The position numbers and the translations under genes were made by a program. Below, in pieces: positions 1-9,712 of a stretch of DNA of 9,712 nucleotides (positions within the stretch are counted from its first letter, which is position 1; each line of letters starts with the position of its first letter). The stretch lies in the IMG/VR virus record IMGVR_UViG_2778261088_000009, positions 1 through 9,712 of that record. One strand, 5' to 3'. The DNA is from a virus. Taxonomy: Duplodnaviria; Heunggongvirae; Uroviricota; Caudoviricetes. Under the pieces are notes generated by a model that worked only from the letters and a program-made list of their open reading frames with translations, did not search any database and was not told where the DNA came from.

Positions 1-1158
1 ATGCTCACCGTTAAGCAGATTGAAGCAGCAAAGCCGAAAGAAAAACCATACCGCCTACTCGATGGTAATGGCCTGTACCTTTATGTCCCTGTATCAGGGA
101 AAAAGGTATGGCAGCTTCGCTACAAGATTGACGGTAAGGAGAAAATCCTGACTGTCGGAAAATATCCGCTTATGACTTTGCAGGAAGCAAGGGATAAGGC
201 ATGGACTGCGAGGAAAGACATCTCGGTTGGCATCGATCCGGTAAAGGCGAAAAAGGCTTCGTCTAACAACAATTCCTTTAGTGCGATTTACAAGGAATGG
301 TACGAGCACAAGAAGCAAGTCTGGTCAGTAGGCTATGCAAACGAACTTGCCAAAATGTTTGACGACGACATTTTACCTATCATCGGCGGCCTTGAAATTC
401 AGGATATTGAGCCGATACAACTGCTGGAAGTAATCCGCAGATTTGAAGATCGCGGTGCAATGGAGCGAGCCAACAAAGCACGTAGAAGATGCGGCGAGGT
501 TTTCCGTTACGCTATTGTCACCGGAAGGGCTAAATATAACCCGGCACCTGACCTTGCAGACGCCATGAAAGGATATCGCAAGAAGAACTTCCCGTTTTTA
601 CCTGCCGACCAGATCCCGGCATTCAACAAAGCACTGGCAACATTTTCAGGAAGTATCGTATCGCTCATTGCGACCAAAGTTTTACGCTACACAGCCCTCA
701 GAACAAAAGAGCTTCGTTCCATGCTATGGAAGAACGTCGATTTTGAAAACAGGATTATCACCATCGACGCCAATGTGATGAAGGGACGCAAGATTCATGT
801 GGTTCCGATGTCGGACCAGGTTATTGAACTTCTCACTACGCTAAGCTCAATCACTAAACCGGTATCAGAGTTTGTTTTTGCCGGACGCAACGATAAGAAG
901 AAGCCAATCTGCGAGAACGCGGTGCTACTTGTGATCAAACAAATCGGCTATGAGGGGCTGGAAAGCGGTCACGGATTCAGGCATGAATTCAGCACGATTA
1001 TGAACGAGCACGAATGGCCTGCCGACGCCATTGAAGTGCAACTGGCACATGCCAACGGCGGATCTGTGCGTGGGATTTACAACCATGCTCAGTATCTCGA
1101 TAAGCGCAGAGAAATGATGCAGTGGTGGGCTGACTGGATTGATGAAAAGGTGGAGTGA
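1..1158 (+). CDS. int: Phage integrase, tyrosine recombinase of the P4-like family (N-terminal arm-binding domain plus C-terminal catalytic domain)
   Basis: Complete 385-aa ORF starting at ATG at base 1. N-terminus (KPYRLLDGNGLYLYV...WQLRYKIDGKE) matches the P4-type integrase N-terminal domain. C-terminus HGFRHEFST...QLAHANGGSVRGIYNHAQYLDKRREMMQWWADWI carries the conserved R...H-x-x-R...Y tyrosine-recombinase signature. Length and sequence resemble enterobacterial argW-associated prophage integrases (IntS-like), from memory only. Confidence 0.93.
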   Translation: MLTVKQIEAAKPKEKPYRLLDGNGLYLYVPVSGKKVWQLRYKIDGKEKILTVGKYPLMTLQEARDKAWTARKDISVGIDPVKAKKASSNNNSFSAIYKEWYEHKKQVWSVGYANELAKMFDDDILPIIGGLEIQDIEPIQLLEVIRRFEDRGAMERANKARRRCGEVFRYAIVTGRAKYNPAPDLADAMKGYRKKNFPFLPADQIPAFNKALATFSGSIVSLIATKVLRYTALRTKELRSMLWKNVDFENRIITIDANVMKGRKIHVVPMSDQVIELLTTLSSITKPVSEFVFAGRNDKKKPICENAVLLVIKQIGYEGLESGHGFRHEFSTIMNEHEWPADAIEVQLAHANGGSVRGIYNHAQYLDKRREMMQWWADWIDEKVE

Positions 1159-2172: not shown

Positions 2173-4608
2173 TTATATATTTTCTCTCATTTCTATCATT
2201 TCAATTCTAGATAATGCTTTTTGGTAATTCCTGCGTTGTAATGCAGCTTCAAGGACTAAAGCCTCTTCATAACGGATACCATAACGTGAGCCTGCAGGAG
2301 TGACCAGAATATCTTCATATTCTGGATCTGCCTCTTCTTCATACTCTTCTTCGACTTCTTGAAACTCTGTCTCGATGTACTCCTCTTCTACATCTTCAAC
2401 TACAGGGACGCTCACGAATGGATTTTGCGCAAAAGGTGAACCATCTTCATTAAGAACAGGTATCATTTCCATTTTTGGAGTCTGATACTCTTCATTCACT
2501 ACTCGTTTAATCCGTGTTCCGTCTTCCAGTACCTCATCCTTTAATACCTGACGACTCTCAGTAACCATCACTGGTTTGCTTACAATTCGAGTTTTAGTAA
2601 CCTGCACTGGAACTGTTGTTATGCGAGTTTTAGTAACCATTACACCTTCGTTTGTCTGAACCTTAGTATATTGATCATCCCACTCGTCAAAGCAAAAGAA
2701 TCCAAATCGGTGCGCATCAAGTCCATGACGCTCAAACGCCTCTTTCGCACGCTGAGCGATCACACCAAAATGCCAGCGCGCCCCGTCCTCACCTTTTTCT
2801 TCCACCCTGTCGAGATACTGGAACTGCACAAAATCTACCTCCGACCAGGCATCCAGAATCGCATCAGCAAAAGATGGTTGCATCAATCGTTCGTCTGATG
2901 TGACAACAAAATCAAGCACCCCACGGGCGAGGATCGGAGGGTTTTTCGTTTTGTGATTCTCATCTGACGTTACGGTGAAGGCTGTCTGTGTGGCCCCGCC
3001 AGCCCAAGCAAGAGCAGCCGTGCCGCAATTAATGGCATTTGTGGTGGTTGGCGTGAGCGCCTTATTTACTGTAACAGTGCCAGTGCCAAGTGCCTCCAGC
3101 GCAATTGAACAATTGCTGATACCTTCGGCACTGATCCTGATGCGAGGATCCGTGATGCTTGCAGTACGCAGGCGAACTGCTCCAGTATCACCGTCTGCAT
3201 AGGACAGGCGAAAGGCCCTCAGCCCATTTCCTTCTAAATCAAAGCTTCGGTCCCTAAATACAGCTCCCATACGCACAGCATTGTTGGACACGCGAGATTG
3301 TAAGTAGCTAAGGCTATTGCCCGCCCCGTCCTCCCAACCTATCCGGTGGGTATTTCGCATAACAATGGCTTTCTGGTATACATCTGTTAAGCCAGACTCA
3401 GTGAAGGTTCTCAAAGATCCGATAGGATATGCAATGCCTGCTCCCCACTTAGATCCATTGGAACTAATGGCTAACGCCTGTGTGCAATCCTCAGTTGTGC
3501 CATTGATTGTCGGGTCTGCACCTGCAACCAAAGATATACCAGTGGTCTTACCACGGTTATCTGCGCTATGCATGTCTACGTAGGTGCCGTGGTTAACTAT
3601 CGCCATCTCAGCACACCAGGTAGTGCCCTTTGCATTGGGGTAACGTTTTGCATCTAAGTATAACGCCCAAACGTTATTGGTTACACCTGATTCATTATCG
3701 TTAACTCCCACTCCAACCACGCCAATAGCGGCACCACCAGTAGGCATTTCTTTATTATGTGCCGCTCCAGCCATACCAATGGCCCCAGTTGAAGAATAGG
3801 ACGCAAAGGTGGCGTTTTTCTCGACCCATCCCAGATTTGGCTGAAGTGTCCCATTGGGGGCTACATAATCTTTCTTCCCCAGCCAGGTACTTTGATCTAC
3901 AGGCGCATCCTTTGCACCTGAATAATCAAAGGCGGCGTCCCCAACAAATAAACGCGGATACCTGGAGGAGTTAACTGGTGTTCCAGGCTCAGACCAAACA
4001 GGACGCCGCTTAAGCATCACGCCGCCAGTGCCTAAAAACTCGGCTTCACTGTCTACAATAAAATTACCTCTATGGAAGGAATTTAATAGATATTTCCCGG
4101 CAGGGACATAAACATCTCCAGCAAACAAGGCCGCAACTGCAAATGAACTGTCCGAGTTATTAGCGCCTGTTGAATCTGCTCCTCCAGCAAATCCACTCCA
4201 AGTAACAGGCTTTGCTAATCCTCCGACAAATCCAGCTCCACCAGGACCCTCCAGTTCAGATCGCAGTTGATCAGGGTCATACTTCAGCACATTAGGAAAA
4301 TAGAACTGCTGCGCACCATATGCATCATATACAGCCATAGAATGGCCTTGCACGGTTACGAATTTGGCAATCTGTCCGTTATATACTGGATACCCTGCGG
4401 CATTGATGACGATCGGCTGTGCAACAGGAACGTGAGAACCATCTTCGTTCTCAACATAGACCTGAATCTGGTTATCAGGATTTACCGGGTCAGTGTCAAT
4501 TTTACCGATATAAATTTTGCCATTAGCCACGGCTTTAAAAGAACGAGCCATAGTGAAGAGTTGCGAAGGCATACTCACTACAACATTGGCATTTATCGAA
4601 TCTGTCAT
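2173..4608 (-). CDS. Tailspike protein, mosaic: P22-type head-binding N-terminal domain, unrelated central (receptor-binding / depolymerase-like) body, C-terminal intramolecular-chaperone-like domain
   Basis: 811-aa ORF with a GGAG Shine-Dalgarno about 9 nt upstream of the ATG at 4606-4608. The first ~115 aa ([44 protein letters not shown]...[15 protein letters not shown]...NVLKYDPDQ) are near-identical in pattern to the P22 gp9 head-binding domain as I remember it. The central region is Gly/Ala/Thr/Asn-rich with no P22 similarity. The last ~240 aa (from [12 protein letters not shown]) resemble the auto-cleaving C-terminal chaperone domains of endosialidase and T5-pb1-type fibers and end in a highly acidic tail. 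Confidence 0.9.
2587..2638. repeat. Tandem direct repeat inside the tailspike 3' coding region
   Basis: 15-16-nt unit (t/g)cgagttttagtaacc at 2587-2602 and 2623-2638 (36-nt period), encoding the repeated peptide VTKTRI in the tailspike C-terminal domain. Confidence 0.7.
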
Positions 4609-4648
4609 TTAATTTGCTCCAGATACAAGGAATCGCCGCAGCATGGCT

Positions 4649-4771
4649 ACGGTGAATTTTTTTGTGATAAAACAACTTTTTAGGAAGTTATTTTGTTCGC
4701 TTTTTGCACTACACTTTTTGTGTAGTGCTCTCCTTCAAGCTCATTACCTAAGCGTGGACACGGTGAATTTT
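4649..4771. repeat. Pair of direct repeats (ACGGTGAATTTT) upstream of the tailspike start
   Basis: Exact 12-mer acggtgaatttt at 4649-4660 and 4760-4771, with extended similarity over about 19 nt (gcatggctacggtgaatttt vs gcgtggacacggtgaatttt). Candidate regulator binding sites; function unknown. Confidence 0.4.
4706..4728. promoter_or_regulatory. Perfect 9-bp inverted repeat (gcactacac-ttttt-gtgtagtgc), operator-like or RNA hairpin
   Basis: Perfect palindrome arms at 4706-4714 and 4720-4728 with a 5-nt loop, about 100 nt upstream of the tailspike ATG. Not followed by a U-tract on either strand, so not a canonical terminator. Confidence 0.3.
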
Positions 4772-4776
4772 GGGCA

Positions 4777-4801
4777 TAAAAAAACCCAGCCGAAGCTGGG
4801 T
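4777..4801 (-). terminator. Rho-independent terminator (first of a tandem pair) downstream of the 322-aa gene
   Basis: On the minus strand: stem acccagc / gctgggt (7 bp) with tetraloop, followed by a run of 6-7 U (plus-strand A-run 4778-4784). Confidence 0.6.
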
Positions 4802-4850
4802 CGTTGCGTTGGTTATCTGTCAGTAGTTATGTGCTGGCTGAAGGATTTGT

Positions 4851-4877
4851 ACAAAAAACCCACCTGAAGGTGGGTTT
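4851..4877 (-). terminator. Rho-independent terminator immediately after the stop codon of the 322-aa gene
   Basis: 9-bp stem (4856-4864 / 4869-4877) with tgaa loop, followed on the minus strand by a T-rich tract. Starts about 6 nt after the TAA at 4883-4885. Confidence 0.55.
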
Positions 4878-4882
4878 CATAA

Positions 4883-5851
4883 TTAGATTTCTGGTTTCAT
4901 TCTTCCGAAAACCTTTTCTATTCCTTTTTCGTATTCTTCTCTTGTCTCACTCATCGCTGCGACACCAAGAAGCTTACCGATATGCTGACGCAAAGCCTTG
5001 ACACCAATTTCAGAAAGGAACAGATGCAACTTATCAGATTGTTTTCCGTTCTCGTCTCGGCTGGCTCGAATCTGTTCAAGGATTTTACCTTTACTCTTTG
5101 CTAGCGGGGTGTATATCTGCATGTTGGTTAGCTGCCCAAAACGAATAGGCCGTCCTTTCTCTGGCCTATTCAGGCCGTACAGTCGATACCACTCCTCGTA
5201 TAGCTCATCTGGAAATTCCTTTTCATATTGACGAGCCTCTTCACGAACAAACGCTTTGAACTCGTCAATGACAGCCTGAACTTCTGGACGATAACCAGCA
5301 AGCGCATACGCAACCCCCTTAATTCCCGCCTTAGCGGAGGCATTAATAAGTCTCTGTGCTGCGGCGGCTGCCTTTAACCGTGATTGTGGTAGATCGTCAT
5401 TATCTTTGGCTTCTATTAGTGCCCTACCAATATCAACAATTGCTGTAATGTCATAACCTAACGCTTGATGAACGGTTTTAGACTTCGAAGTAAGTTGAAA
5501 TTTATAGGGATTTTCCATTTTTCGCTGCAATTCTAGATCTCGGTATTTGCTCATATACTGAGCGCCAAGCAGTTGATCTAAATCCCTGGCATGTTCACCA
5601 ATCCCTAGCAACTGAGATAATCCAGTTTTCGTAACAACGACAGTTTTCGACTCGTCATCCAGTACATAACATTCAGCATCAATGCCAAAATCATCTAAAA
5701 AGTTACCACGATGAGTTGCCCTGAGAATCTTACTTTTCCATCTTGCAGCAGCTGCTTTCTTTGCTATTTCAGAACGCTGCTCTTTAGTCAGCGACTTTGC
5801 GCGAGCGATCCCGCCCTTAGCTTTCCCTTCGCCACTTTTCTTTTCAGTCAT
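4883..5851 (-). CDS. Hypothetical protein (322 aa) with a basic N-terminal motif; occupies the position held by the antirepressor/immunity-I genes in P22
   Basis: Long minus-strand ORF. I place the start at the ATG at 5849-5851 (MTEKKSGEGKAKGG...) because AAAGGTG sits 9 nt upstream; the track's longer start at 5914 adds 21 implausible residues. The N-terminus GGIARAKSLTKEQRSEIAKKAAAARW looks like a basic nucleic-acid-binding motif. No family assigned with confidence. Confidence 0.8.
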   Translation of the reverse strand: MTEKKSGEGKAKGGIARAKSLTKEQRSEIAKKAAAARWKSKILRATHRGNFLDDFGIDAECYVLDDESKTVVVTKTGLSQLLGIGEHARDLDQLLGAQYMSKYRDLELQRKMENPYKFQLTSKSKTVHQALGYDITAIVDIGRALIEAKDNDDLPQSRLKAAAAAQRLINASAKAGIKGVAYALAGYRPEVQAVIDEFKAFVREEARQYEKEFPDELYEEWYRLYGLNRPEKGRPIRFGQLTNMQIYTPLAKSKGKILEQIRASRDENGKQSDKLHLFLSEIGVKALRQHIGKLLGVAAMSETREEYEKGIEKVFGRMKPEI

Positions 5852-5944
5852 AATGCAAGCACCTTTGTTGTGATGTATGCTTGCATTATATGCACTGTAC
5901 ACACATACAAGCAAGCATAAAACAAAAACAAAATGCTTGCATTA
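5850..5944. promoter_or_regulatory. Two operator-like palindromes built from four copies of the half-site TAATGCAAGCA in the divergent intergenic region
   Basis: Palindrome 1: 12-bp arms ataatgcaagca (5850-5861) and tgcttgcattat (5878-5889), 16-bp spacer, covering the -10 and the start codon of the 322-aa gene. Palindrome 2: arms gcaagcat (5911-5918) and atgcttgc (5933-5940, extending to atgcttgcatta), 14-bp spacer, overlapping the -35. Centres are about 56 bp apart. Confidence 0.55.
5885..5914 (-). promoter_or_regulatory. Candidate sigma70 promoter for the 322-aa gene
   Basis: On the minus strand: TTGCTT (5909-5914), 18-bp spacer, perfect TATAAT (5885-5890). Leaves a ~26-nt leader containing the AAAGGTG Shine-Dalgarno. 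Both hexamers overlap the palindromic half-sites in the next feature. Confidence 0.5.
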
Positions 5945-6007
5945 CAACCGCGCTACTCCAACTACACATTATCATCTGGTATCCTGCTCAAAACTAAGGA
6001 GGTTGGT

Positions 6008-6331
6008 GTGTATACAACAGTTATCGTGATAGCTATCGCACTCATTGTGGTTCAGTACCAACTGGCATCTTTAAAACAAAAGATATCTGACCTCAAGACT
6101 GAGAACGAAGCACTTAAAAACTCAATAAAAGATGAGAAGAACAAACTATCATTCACCATATCTGATGTTGAGCAATCCATTGAAATTATTGAGAATAATA
6201 TTAACAGGCTAAAAAAAGAAGATATTCATGAAATCAATGACAATATCAAGGATTTGAAATCTTGGCTTAGGAATGTAGGACAAATCGCCACATCAACACG
6301 AGATAAGCTCAATCCATCCATGGATGATTAA
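6008..6331 (+). CDS. Small bitopic membrane protein with coiled-coil domain (107 aa from GTG 6008; track ORF starts at 5933)
   Basis: Strong AAGGAGG Shine-Dalgarno at 5996-6002, 5 nt before an in-frame GTG at 6008. Product starts with a hydrophobic helix (YTTVIVIAIALIVVQY) followed by heptad-like Lys/Glu/Asn-rich sequence (LKQKISDLKTENEALKNSIKDEKNKL...). AT-rich codon usage unlike the neighbouring late genes. Confidence 0.6.
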   Translation: MYTTVIVIAIALIVVQYQLASLKQKISDLKTENEALKNSIKDEKNKLSFTISDVEQSIEIIENNINRLKKEDIHEINDNIKDLKSWLRNVGQIATSTRDKLNPSMDD

Positions 6332-6679
6332 TTACTCCTGTGCCATTCCGCTTAGCGACGCTACAATGCCAGCCCTCGCTAAGCGATTGAACTCTTCGTT
6401 TCCAACTGCATCACGTATTGCTTTTATGGCGACTTTATTTGCCATAAATCTGCGTTCCGCCGCCGCTAATGCTTCTTTGCTTCCACCTGCTCTTACTGCT
6501 TTGGTGGCTTCCTGAACAGCTTTCTCTATCGCATATCGACCACTACGTGTGGTGGCAATTTTAGATACAGCGCCTTTTAACCCGGCGCCAACTAAAGCAC
6601 CCGCGGCAGCGCCTGCAATGCCCCCTCCAGCGCCACCAACAATGGCACCTGATGTTGAGTTGGCAATTGCATTTAACAC
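6332..6679 (-). CDS. Hypothetical glycine-zipper protein (115 aa, GTG start)
   Basis: Minus-strand ORF beginning at a GTG that overlaps the upstream stop (GTGTTAA). N-terminal Gly/Ala-rich hydrophobic segment [28 protein letters not shown] is typical of glycine-zipper membrane-inserting helices. Could be a separate coupled gene or the 3' part of one frameshifted gene with the 149-aa ORF. Confidence 0.5.
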
Positions 6680-7122
6680 TGTTGATGTGACGTTGGATAC
6701 CCACCAATTGTTTCACCGGCTTGCGCGTAAGGGTCTGTCGGTCGATCGACTGGACGATAGACATCATCCAAAACCTTGGGTCCACCAAGCCCCTGACTGA
6801 TTGCATTAATCAGACTTGCGCCGCCCTGCAATACGTCAAATGGTATGTTTACCAGACCACGACCAGCCTGTTCTGCAATTTGCCCTGCACTTTGACCACC
6901 TGTGAGCCAATCATCAGCTTGTTGCATCAATGATGGTTCTTCTTTCTGCTGCTGAGGCGGAGGGTATGCTGCATAAAACTGATCTCTTGCTTCAGCCCAT
7001 TTGTCACCAGCCTTAGGGGCAACAACCTCATCAAAATATTGCGCTTGAGCCTGTGCTTTCTGTTCTTCAGTTAACGCCTGATACTGTGGAGAAGCGATAA
7101 CATCTTTCCATGCTTTAGCCAT
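6673..7122 (-). CDS. Hypothetical protein (149 aa), Gln/Ala/Pro-rich; possible virion internal or ejection-type protein
   Basis: Its ATG at 7120-7122 overlaps the TAA of the upstream 449-aa gene (TAATG), indicating translational coupling. Low-complexity Q/A/P-rich composition. No confident family assignment. Confidence 0.6.
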
Positions 7123-8471
7123 TAATCACCCCATAAAGACGAGAAACCGGACTTATTGCTGTCGCTTCCTGATTTTCGCTCACTAACATATGTGTCATAA
7201 CCTGATGAACTATATCCCATTGATTCAGCCTCCCTTGCTGCAACCTTTTGAAATACAGAATATTGCGATCGGATTTCAGATAACTGTTTTCTGACGACCT
7301 CTTCAGGCTGTGTTATATCGAGTTTCGCGATCAGGTTTTCCAGTTTTTGGCCTTCAGCATTGGAGAGGCTACCCATACCTCGCATAGTCTGCACGTTCTG
7401 GACAAACGCACCCGACTTTAATTCTTCTATCGCATTACGGTTTGCAAGCCCTTCAGCACTTGTGAAGCCATCTATATTTCTTCCTTCGAAGCGACCGATA
7501 CCTTCAAGCTCCTTCTTACCAAGCAAAGAATCAATTTTCTCTATCCCTCGCTCACCAGTAATCAACGCATTGTTGTAATTATTGTTGCCATCAAGCCATC
7601 TCTTAGCCTGAGACATTCTGGCTGACGTTGCAGCTTTACCGGTTAGAGGATCAATTCCCGTCGCTGCTATCTGTGAGTTAAGAGACAAAACATCCATATC
7701 CTGAAGTTGTCCTGCTCTTTCAAGGCCCGCCTGTGACTGCTTAAACACATACTTGTCGTGATTCAGTCTTGCCATTTGAGCCTTATAGGAAAGATCCTGC
7801 CCCCTAATAGCCCTCGCATTCGTCATGTCATTATTGCGAATGGTTTCGTTAATTCTTTGCTGCTCCTGCTGGCGACCAACCATCTTATCCTGAACAGCAA
7901 ACGCCTTTTCTGGCCCAAGTGCACCGAGAGACATAGTAGTCAGCATGTGTGATAGCTGCTCTGGATTCTGGATACCTGTCTGAATCATCCAGTCAGCATT
8001 CGCCCCCACGCGATTTAACCTGTCCTTGTTGTCAGTAATGAATTTACTGTAGGCTTCCGGCCCCTGAGAAAGAGCGACGTTAGCCCTCATGGCTAAATCG
8101 CCCATATCGTTGCGTTGCTGCTCATTAAGACCGGAAAATGCCTGTTGTGCCTGTGCAACAAACGCTGGATTTTCCTGGGCAAACTTAAATAGTCCCGATG
8201 GATCACCAGAAGCCCATGCATCAGCGTGAACCTTATTGAACGCACTAATAGCTTTCTGTTGCTGTTCCTGATTGTAAATATCAGCAACTCCAGCCAGACC
8301 ACGTAACGCGGTCAGACCAACGTTATTTGCACCTGAGCGAGCCAGTTCATTGTTTTCGCGGATCAGACCAAGCGTTGCGTTAATGTCGCTTGCCTTTGGC
8401 GCATTCTCATTTTGCGTACCGATGCCAGCCAGAAAACCACCAGAATTAATACCCTGTTGCCACGTAGCCAT
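7122..8471 (-). CDS. Hypothetical protein (449 aa), Gln/Asn/Ala-rich; possible virion internal or ejection-type protein
   Basis: Long ORF whose ATG (8469-8471) lies 2 nt after the stop of the gp4-like remnant, with AAGGGG Shine-Dalgarno. Its position after coat and gp4 in a P22-like late operon suggests a virion component. No similarity to P22 gp10 or gp26 as I remember them. Confidence 0.7.
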
Positions 8472-8473
8472 GA

Positions 8474-8719
8474 TTACCCCTTAAAACAACGAGCCAAGCA
8501 GACCAAGACCAGCACCGATAACGGCATGATGCCGTTTTCTGTATCCGCAAACTGATATCCAAGCTCGATACCTTTCGCCTGCCATGCTGCCATCATGTCT
8601 TCGAGGTCATTAATGGCATCTTCAATTGCCTGAGGGTCAGCATCTGTCAACGTGGCATTGGAATACAGCCCGGCTTTTCGTAAAGCCTTTAGAACGAGAT
8701 CACCCTTCGTTTTCGCCAT
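8474..8719 (-). pseudogene. N-terminal remnant of a gp4-like tail accessory (head completion) gene
   Basis: 81-aa ORF. The first ~66 aa ([62 protein letters not shown]) track the P22 gp4 N-terminus as I remember it. The ORF then ends after 18 unrelated residues ([18 protein letters not shown]), whereas P22 gp4 is about 166 aa. The break coincides with a 17-bp palindrome at 8520-8536. Confidence 0.55.
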
Positions 8720-8888
8720 CTTCTTCCGCCTTAGCCACTTTTTGCTTCGTTGCGGTTTCTTCAGGAGTTTTTACCCAACCTTTTTTCAGGTGAGATTTAA
8801 CTTCTTCGTCATCAACAATGATGTAATCGACAGCAAACTGACCACAGGTGATCATGTTGCCAGGCTTATAGAGCATTGTTCGTGCCAT
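8700..8888 (-). CDS. Small hypothetical protein (62 aa from the internal ATG at 8886-8888) between coat and the gp4-like gene
   Basis: ATG at 8886-8888 preceded by GGGAGAAG about 6 nt upstream and located just downstream of the coat terminator hairpin. The track's longer start at 8927 would overlap that hairpin. Codon usage resembles neighbouring genes. Its 3' end overlaps the gp4-like start by 20 nt. Confidence 0.45.
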
Positions 8889-8900
8889 TGTCTTCTCCCA

Positions 8901-8922
8901 ATAAAAATGGGGCCGAAGCCCC
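8901..8922 (-). terminator. Rho-independent (probably partial) terminator immediately after the coat gene
   Basis: On the minus strand: GGGGC-UUCG-GCCCC (5-bp GC stem with UUCG tetraloop; plus-strand 8909-8922) followed by AUUUUUAUU. Begins 8 nt after the coat TAA at 8930-8932. Confidence 0.55.
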
Positions 8923-8929
8923 GCCAAAA

Positions 8930-9712
8930 TTACTGCCCGGCAATAACGATGCCCGTATATTCAGGAACAAGTACAGAGCAACCATACAGAGTGGTGAAAC
9001 GAGCAGTGGTTACGCCTTTGATGTGGTCGAAGGCGTAAGACATGATCAGCGTAGCGCCCTGCTCGGTGGTTGCTGTCATTACCTGTGGACCCTGACCAGT
9101 CGGGAACGCCAGTTTGCCGTACATCAGCTCAACAGAACCATCAGCCCAGAACAGGTTAGCCGGTGCGGCATTTTTGTTGAGAATGGTAATTGCTGCACCA
9201 TTTGCCGCGTTAGCATCAACGTTTGCATATGGTCGGCTGGCGACATCCGCGTTGTCAGGCGGCAGAATTTTCGGGGAGATAGTTACTGTCGTTCCGCTTA
9301 CTGCCAGAACGCGGAATACCTGCGGCTGCCCGGTGGTGTCTTTGGTGATCTGGTGTACAGAATTCACGCCAGCAATGGTGAACGCATCGCCAACCTGCAA
9401 CCCAGATGCAGATACCGTAATAGTCCCCTGTCGGTTATCCACTGGCATATCGTTGGCATCTTTCGCTTCAACCTTGTGCGCAGGTTCAGCCGCCAGCGTC
9501 AGGGAAGTTGCTGTACCCTTCGGAACACGACCAGAAATATCCGTCTTGTAGCTATCGAAGGACGCAACCGGAGGGATCTGCGCTTTTTCGTATGCTGTCA
9601 GGGTTGCGCCCTGAGCATAGGCACGGTGACCAAGCTCGCCAGCAAGGTCTTTGTAGTTGAAGGGGTTCCAGAAAGAGCGGCGGTTGATACCCTGTGGTAT
9701 CGGCCTTGGCAC
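8930..9712 (-). CDS. Major capsid (coat) protein, P22 gp5-like, 5'-truncated by the window edge (C-terminal ~260 aa present)
   Basis: The ORF runs off the right edge; the leading 'M' in the track is a GTG at the window boundary, not a start. Translation aligns by eye with the C-terminal ~260 aa of P22 coat as I remember it (SFWNPFNYKDLAG vs SYFFNPQDYKKAG; RPYANVDANAANGAAITILNKNAAPANLFWADGS vs [34 protein letters not shown]). Confidence 0.9.
   Translation of the reverse strand: MPRPIPQGINRRSFWNPFNYKDLAGELGHRAYAQGATLTAYEKAQIPPVASFDSYKTDISGRVPKGTATSLTLAAEPAHKVEAKDANDMPVDNRQGTITVSASGLQVGDAFTIAGVNSVHQITKDTTGQPQVFRVLAVSGTTVTISPKILPPDNADVASRPYANVDANAANGAAITILNKNAAPANLFWADGSVELMYGKLAFPTGQGPQVMTATTEQGATLIMSYAFDHIKGVTTARFTTLYGCSVLVPEYTGIVIAGQ

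Follow-up and report, generated by a model that had tools for sequence, protein, structure and literature searches.

An 81-residue gp4-like reading frame is very probably a deletion scar in a decayed P22-like prophage at argW

The window, by which we mean the whole stretch of 9,712 nucleotides analysed here, matches the E. coli assembly GCA_002486265.1 at 100% (NNXM01000001.1, 316 kb, the longest of four contigs that carry the 81-aa reading frame discussed below). It leads from an integrase gene through an acetyltransferase, a tailspike and a P63C-domain gene to an hkcB homologue and a series of whole or fragmentary P22-like late genes, and ends in the first bases of the host gene dsdX (Table 1). 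In the source contig, the yfdC-argW-intS flank is 97.8% identical to K-12. At the opposite end, the coat fragment adjoins host dsdX-dsdA-emrYK-evgAS, and this flank is 99.99% identical to K-12 from dsdX nt 207 onward. Beyond the coat fragment the contig holds no phage gene, and the window is essentially the entire remnant.

Table 1. Genes, breakpoints and aligned segments of the remnant (window positions; CUS-3 locus positions are given where a comparison was made).
Feature	Position	Strand	Remarks
IntS-type integrase	1..1158	+	forms the attL end; argW/yfdC adjacent in the source contig
Hexapeptide (CatB-related) O-acetyltransferase, intact, 214 aa	1434..2078	+	Pfam
Tailspike, intact, 811 aa	2173..4608	-	P22 head-binding domain, receptor-binding part, S74 chaperone domain
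P63C-domain gene	4883..5914	-	343 or 322 aa, depending on the start chosen
hkcB homologue	5933..6331	+	97% to CUS-3 hkcB over 107 aa; normal gp16 neighbour
gp16 C-terminal fragment	6332..6700	-	residues 598-719
149-aa ORF	6673..7122	-	gp16 residues 1-142 (97.9%) plus 7 out-of-frame codons
Junction 2	6696..6699	-	TATC microhomology; frameshifting 1,369-bp deletion in gp16, CUS-3 locus 7827-9195
gp20 ejection protein, full length, 449 aa	7122..8471	-	PF16928; 98.2% to CUS-3 gp20
Chimeric 81-aa ORF	8474..8719	-	gp4 (tail adaptor) codons 1-67 plus 14 codons of the gene 7 3' end, +1 frame
Last 45 nt of ejection gene 7 (gp7)	8474..8518	-	sole remainder of gene 7
Junction 1	8519..8520	-	2-nt microhomology TA (phage sense); CUS-3 locus 2500 (gp4) joined to 6003 (gene 7)
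17-bp palindrome AACGGCATCATGCCGTT	8520..8536	.	8-nt arms, 1-nt centre; encodes N-G-I-M-P-L in Sf6/CUS-3-type gp4
62-aa conserved small ORF between coat and gp4	8703..8888	-	100% to Sf101 hypothetical protein
Coat gene, 3' part	8930..9699	-	codons 162-417; 99.6% aa to Sf101 coat; 5' part deleted
Junction 3 and first bases of host dsdX	9698..9712	.	coat codon 162 joined to dsdX nt 207 (K-12 numbering); TA at 9698-9699
Segment: coat, orf62, first 201 nt of gp4 (codons 1-67)	9699-8519		CUS-3 locus 1320-2500; 99.2% nt to Sf101
Segment: gene 7 end, gp20, gp16 codons 1-142	8526-6696		CUS-3 locus 5995-7826; 98.1% nt to CUS-3
Segment: gp16 end, hkcB	6699-5992		CUS-3 locus 9192-9899; 96.9% nt

The tailspike carries a P22/Sf6 head-binding domain (residues 1-119) and an S74 intramolecular-chaperone domain around residues 567-662, followed by a long acidic C-terminal extension; its central part gave only weak sequence matches in the PDB (9vvr tail spike and the K5 lyase 2x3h). 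The acetyltransferase gene lies between int and the tailspike, where CUS-3 has the phase-variable neuO, and is likely a surface-polysaccharide conversion gene. The same gene is present in the intact prophages of NCCP 13717 and HCM-25C-3. An identification as NeuO was considered and rejected: the match to the CUS-3 neuO region was 47% over 53 aa, on the opposite strand and without the heptanucleotide repeats. Where CUS-3 has ant, mnt and two hypothetical genes, the window has the P63C-domain gene, and all that is shared with CUS-3 at this position beside the tailspike is about 90 nt of boundary sequence. The P63C-domain gene and the hkcB-like gene diverge from an intergenic region with nested inverted repeats (window positions 5850-5944), which have 12-nt arms that pair perfectly (ATAATGCAAGCA/TGCTTGCATTAT) and 34-nt arms with a complementarity of 79%. 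These repeats resemble the operators of an immI-like control region from which the mnt, arc and ant of CUS-3 are missing.

The late operon shared by CUS-3, HK620 and Sf101 has the order coat - orf62 - gp4 - gp10 - gp26 - gp14 - gp7 - gp20 - gp16 - hkcB. At the gp4 position, where the sequence-only reading had recognised a gp4-like N-terminus, the window has the 81-aa frame on the minus strand. Its product matches the Pfam profile P22_Tail-4 (PF11650) with 88.4 bits (E 7e-25, cut-off 21), and by this sequence-profile measure it groups with the gp4 / Sf6 gp7 tail adaptors. Over residues 1-67 the product does not differ from gp4 of Sf101 and CUS-3 (153 aa, 100% identity), and the likeness stops after ...GIMPL67, in agreement with the loss of similarity first placed at about 66 residues. 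The stop codon follows 14 codons past residue 67, not 18 as had been counted, and overlaps the gp20 start. Residues 68-81 come from gene 7, translated out of frame, and differ from gp7's own C-terminus.

Because the 81-aa protein exceeds the Pfam gathering score for PF11650, it could be taken for a whole protein from a gp4-like family that is short by nature, an alternative that the sequence-only reading itself had raised. We regard this as wrong with near certainty. The match spans only positions 4-66 of the 159 in the profile, a full-length gp4 being a protein of about 150-166 aa that covers all of it, and the final 14 residues are the out-of-frame gene 7 DNA. The named full-length members of the gp4 cluster have 153 aa, and no short gp4 family is indicated, since all solved homologues (Sf6 gene 7 protein, P22 gp4) have 132-166 aa. 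The setting of the frame is atypical as well: gp4 would be expected directly upstream of gp10 in a complete head-completion module, and its neighbour here is gp20.

A megablast search against phage genomes split the region exactly at window position 8519. The coat-to-gp4 side is 97-99% identical to Sf101, JEP4, Kapi1 and others, and the other side is about 97-98% identical to genes 7, 20, 16 and hkcB of CUS-3 and HK620, as named in the HK620 annotation under the match. BLAST of the window against the CUS-3 and Sf101 loci resolved this into the three segments listed in Table 1, with which the protein identities agree. At the base level, junction 1 reads ...AACGGCATCATGCCGT[TA]TCGGTGCTGG..., the TA being common to both parents, and no new DNA is present at the joint. 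Relative to CUS-3, 3,502 bp are deleted (CUS-3 locus 2501-6002), an interval that contains the C-terminal part of gp4, gp10 (PF11134, 472 aa), the 233-aa protein at the gp26 position (labelled "phage tail protein" in relatives), gp14 (DUF2824) and nearly all of gp7 (PF25688). Searched by tblastn, CUS-3 gp10, gp26, gp14 and gp7 had no match in the window or within 10 kb on either side of it in the source contig. The absence of gp10 and gp26 noted from the sequence is thereby borne out and extends to gp14 and gp7, and the proposed deletion or illegitimate-recombination junction takes concrete form as a 3,502-bp loss at a TA microhomology. We conclude that the 81-aa gene is very probably a deletion scar in a decayed P22-like prophage.

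The sequence-only reading had also allowed that the tail-completion module was swapped for unrelated genes, in which case the prophage would use another tail hub and needle. What spoke for this was the impression that the 449-, 149- and 115-aa proteins are unlike gp10 and gp26. The first of them is full-length gp20 (364.6 bits with PF16928, the P22 injectosome translocase gp20), and the other two are the two ends of gp16: the listed 115-aa GTG frame corresponds to gp16 residues 605-719 (98.3%) and is the open stretch of the frame of the C-terminal fragment. These proteins stand in the canonical order gp7-gp20-gp16-hkcB, with gp16 disrupted and gp7 reduced to 45 nt. The segment map, the joint without new DNA and the gp20 and gp16 identities refute a replacement, and head, packaging and lysis genes are gone too, leaving the swap with a negligible probability. 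Ejection-protein homologs in conserved order were part of what the sequence-only reading had named as grounds for its own refutation, and such homologs are indeed there.

Two observations concern the genes on this side of the junction. As called, the hkcB homologue is 25 aa longer at its N-terminus than CUS-3 hkcB (132 against 107 aa) and looks like a small membrane and coiled-coil protein, the Pfam coiled-coil matches being weak and sub-threshold. Otherwise intact P22-like prophages at argW, namely those of WCHEC050613 (locus L008, 10441-11673) and HCM-25C-3 (locus L003, 15683-16807), likewise have a gp16 gene that is annotated as partial or as a pseudogene, and gp16 may be a frequent early casualty of decay.

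Intact prophages at the argW site with the full gp4-gp10-gp26-gp14-gp7 block are found in NCCP 13717, HCM-25C-3 and WCHEC050613. In WCHEC050613, the sequences to either side of junction 1 occur at 96.9% and 97.5% identity to the remnant, exactly 3,502 bp further apart, which makes an intramolecular deletion in one mosaic prophage the simplest account. A single intact parent that matches both flanks at 98% or more did not turn up. The flanks do differ in their affinities, the left one being 99.2% identical to Sf101 against 92.8% to CUS-3, and the right one 98.1% identical to CUS-3 against about 70% to Sf101. This pattern could point to illegitimate recombination between two P22-like genomes, one Sf101-like and one CUS-3-like, co-resident or infecting. 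We consider such an exchange unlikely: P22-like phages are mosaic, and in intact prophages at argW the two flank types occur together, at about 97% identity and with the normal 3,502-bp spacing. Two more deletions in the same element suggest general decay, and the outcome would be equal in both cases: five genes lost at a non-homologous join.

The junction also had to be weighed as an assembly artefact, for instance a collapse at the palindrome. Palindromes can cause mis-assembly, and the junction is missing from complete genomes, GTDB representatives and metagenome contigs: the exact 31-nt junction 1 sequence had 0 matches in GTDB representative genomes and 0 in JGI metagenome contigs, and none of 5,426 complete E. 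coli genomes spans any of the three junction regions or shows an intermediate. The identical 81-aa product is, however, called on four contigs, 10 kb to 316 kb long, which come from NCBI and from independently built Logan assemblies, and a 66-aa "partial" gp4 with the same end residue, 66, occurs on three further NCBI contigs, where it is probably the same scar. The joined sequences share 2 nt only, so that there is no repeat to collapse. An artefact is thus highly improbable. The absence of the junctions from complete E. coli genomes, GTDB representatives and metagenome contigs indicates that the scars are confined to a small lineage.

The 17-bp palindrome at the breakpoint was present as the sequence-only reading had described it. 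The palindrome (aacggcatgatgccgtt) lies wholly within the gp4-derived part of the frame, and the full 17-mer is unchanged in the intact gp4 of CUS-3, Sf101 and NCCP 13717. It is therefore native to gp4 and was not made by the junction, of which it had been thought a feature; the breakpoint TA falls at its outer 3' edge, not inside it. The 17-mer is missing from the divergent P22-type gp4 of HCM-25C-3, which argues against a conserved functional element. A terminator-like match on the antisense strand is at the level of shuffled sequence (3 matches, with 3.3 expected).

The palindrome is directly followed in intact gp4 by another inverted repeat (TACCTGACGATGATTCAGGTA, CUS-3 locus 2499-2519), and the breakpoint TA (CUS-3 locus 2499-2500) lies exactly between the two. 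As single-stranded DNA, the 51-nt stretch has a folding energy of -11.3 kcal/mol (z = -5.0 relative to shuffled sequence); the gene 7 sequence at the partner endpoint is unstructured (z = +0.8). When arms of 8 nt or more and a loop no longer than 10 nt are required, the 15.6-kb CUS-3 locus contains 4 perfect inverted repeats, and 0.12% of its positions lie within 1 nt of the outer edge of such a repeat. One of the six deletion endpoints falls no more than 1 nt from the edge of a palindrome with 8-nt arms; the other five have no comparable inverted repeat. The chance figure over six endpoints is about 0.7%, calculated post hoc.

Hairpins are known to favour the endpoints of illegitimate deletions, and SbcCD cleaves hairpins. 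Studies by Albertini in 1982 and by Glickman and Ripley in 1984 reportedly described short-homology illegitimate recombination, or palindrome- and hairpin-associated deletion, in E. coli. The left endpoint of the first deletion, at the 3' base of a stable palindrome hairpin and directly before a second hairpin, may accordingly have been favoured by DNA secondary structure: replication could have stalled or slipped there, or a nuclease could have cut the hairpin, with microhomology joining to follow. This can be offered only tentatively, for a single event whose palindrome was spotted post hoc. The remnant resembles the E. coli cases in its 2-4-nt microhomologies and in having one endpoint at the base of a stable hairpin. 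It differs from the classical deletions in that its microhomologies are shorter than their 5-10-nt direct repeats, and from hairpin-associated deletion in being a single natural event with an unstructured partner endpoint. The likeness of E. coli illegitimate recombination to microhomology-mediated end joining has been treated in a general context (PMC11372144).

At the third junction, the fusion of coat codon 162 to dsdX nt 207 implies that a third deletion took the 5' part of the coat gene, the other phage genes, attR, dsdC and the 5' end of dsdX. Missing from the remnant are the portal, terminase, scaffold, lysis, replication and immunity genes, and the element does not have the virion gene set of a functional, inducible P22-like prophage. 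It corresponds to a cryptic prophage remnant at argW, the CPS-53-like site, with its attR side deleted. The sequence-only reading had proposed a tail-defective prophage; tail genes are indeed lost, but that description is too mild for an element whose coat gene is cut and whose packaging, head, lysis and immunity genes are gone. On the host side, the losses are dsdC and nt 1-206 of dsdX, which encodes the D-serine transporter; dsdA is intact (locus L005, 7891-9022). The host strain probably has altered D-serine uptake or regulation.

Taken together, these junctions make the following history very probable. A P22-like prophage (Lederbergvirus; CUS-3/HK620/Sf101-type) would have integrated at the tRNA-Arg gene argW and then lost DNA by illegitimate recombination at microhomologies of 2-4 nt, in three or more independent events. 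One event would have excised the 3,502 bp between gp4 codon 67 and the last 45 nt of gene 7, at the cost of the C-terminal half of gp4, gp10 (the tail hub), gp26 (the needle), gp14 and gp7, and left the 81-aa gp4'-'gp7 out-of-frame fusion. A second event would have taken 1,369 bp within gp16, and a third would have extended leftward from coat codon 161, across the remaining phage genes and attR, into dsdC and dsdX. Judged by its gene content, the remnant would be unable to build heads, tails or the ejection machinery and is predicted to be non-inducible and cryptic. It still carries intact int, acetyltransferase, tailspike and gp20 genes. No sigma-70-like promoter that could drive the fusion frame was found on the minus strand between positions 6200 and 9712, and the native late promoter is deleted; expression of the gp4'-'gp7 fusion is therefore unlikely.

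Compared with CUS-3, HK620 and Sf101, the remnant keeps the gene order, the integrase type and the int-proximal layout of a conversion gene and a tailspike, with 93-99% nucleotide identity in every retained segment. It differs from them in lacking the 3,502 bp from the gp4 C-terminus to gp7 and the 1,369 bp of gp16, in a coat gene cut at codon 162 with everything upstream gone, and in having a P63C-domain gene in place of ant/mnt in the immI region and an acetyltransferase in place of neuO. A second likeness is to the K-12 cryptic prophage CPS-53 (KplE1), which occupies the same argW site, with yfdC-argW-intS on one side and dsdC/dsdX on the other, and is likewise a non-inducible remnant of about 10 kb that keeps int and surface-polysaccharide-modification genes. 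Unlike the remnant, CPS-53 retains attR, with torI beside it, and intact dsdC and dsdX. Its cargo consists of the gtr-type yfdGHI and tail-fibre fragments, whereas the remnant, its right end deleted into dsdX, carries a tailspike, gp20, gp16 fragments, gp4' and coat'. A literature search for P22-like, argW and defective remnants returned no description of this one. The phenomenon itself is ordinary prophage decay and no surprise to a specialist.

A more consequential reading can be formulated, in which the twin-hairpin site of Sf6/CUS-3-type gp4 is a recurrent deletion hotspot, the gp4(1-67) fragment is an expressed dominant-negative decoy, or both; we judge it very unlikely. As a hotspot, the site would repeatedly inactivate Sf6/CUS-3-type prophages. 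As a decoy, gp4(1-67) with its new hydrophobic tail would bind the portal and block tail attachment of superinfecting P22-like phages, and the remnant would be kept as a defence and conversion cassette instead of neutral debris.

For the deletion-scar reading, the consequences begin with annotation. The 81-, 149-, 115- and 260-aa frames appear to be pseudogene fragments and would be annotated as gp4', gp16', gp16'' and coat' and not as novel small proteins, and the locus as a non-inducible remnant of 9.7 kb. It offers a base-resolved natural case of what would be stepwise prophage decay by microhomology joins, one of them at a hairpin and one into dsdC and dsdX. Recombination of lambdoid phages with defective prophages has been shown experimentally (PMC3945230), and the intact tailspike, acetyltransferase and gp20 would be available for recombination with incoming P22-like phages. 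More speculatively, int, the acetyltransferase and the tailspike may have been retained as conversion genes or as recombination stock for such phages.
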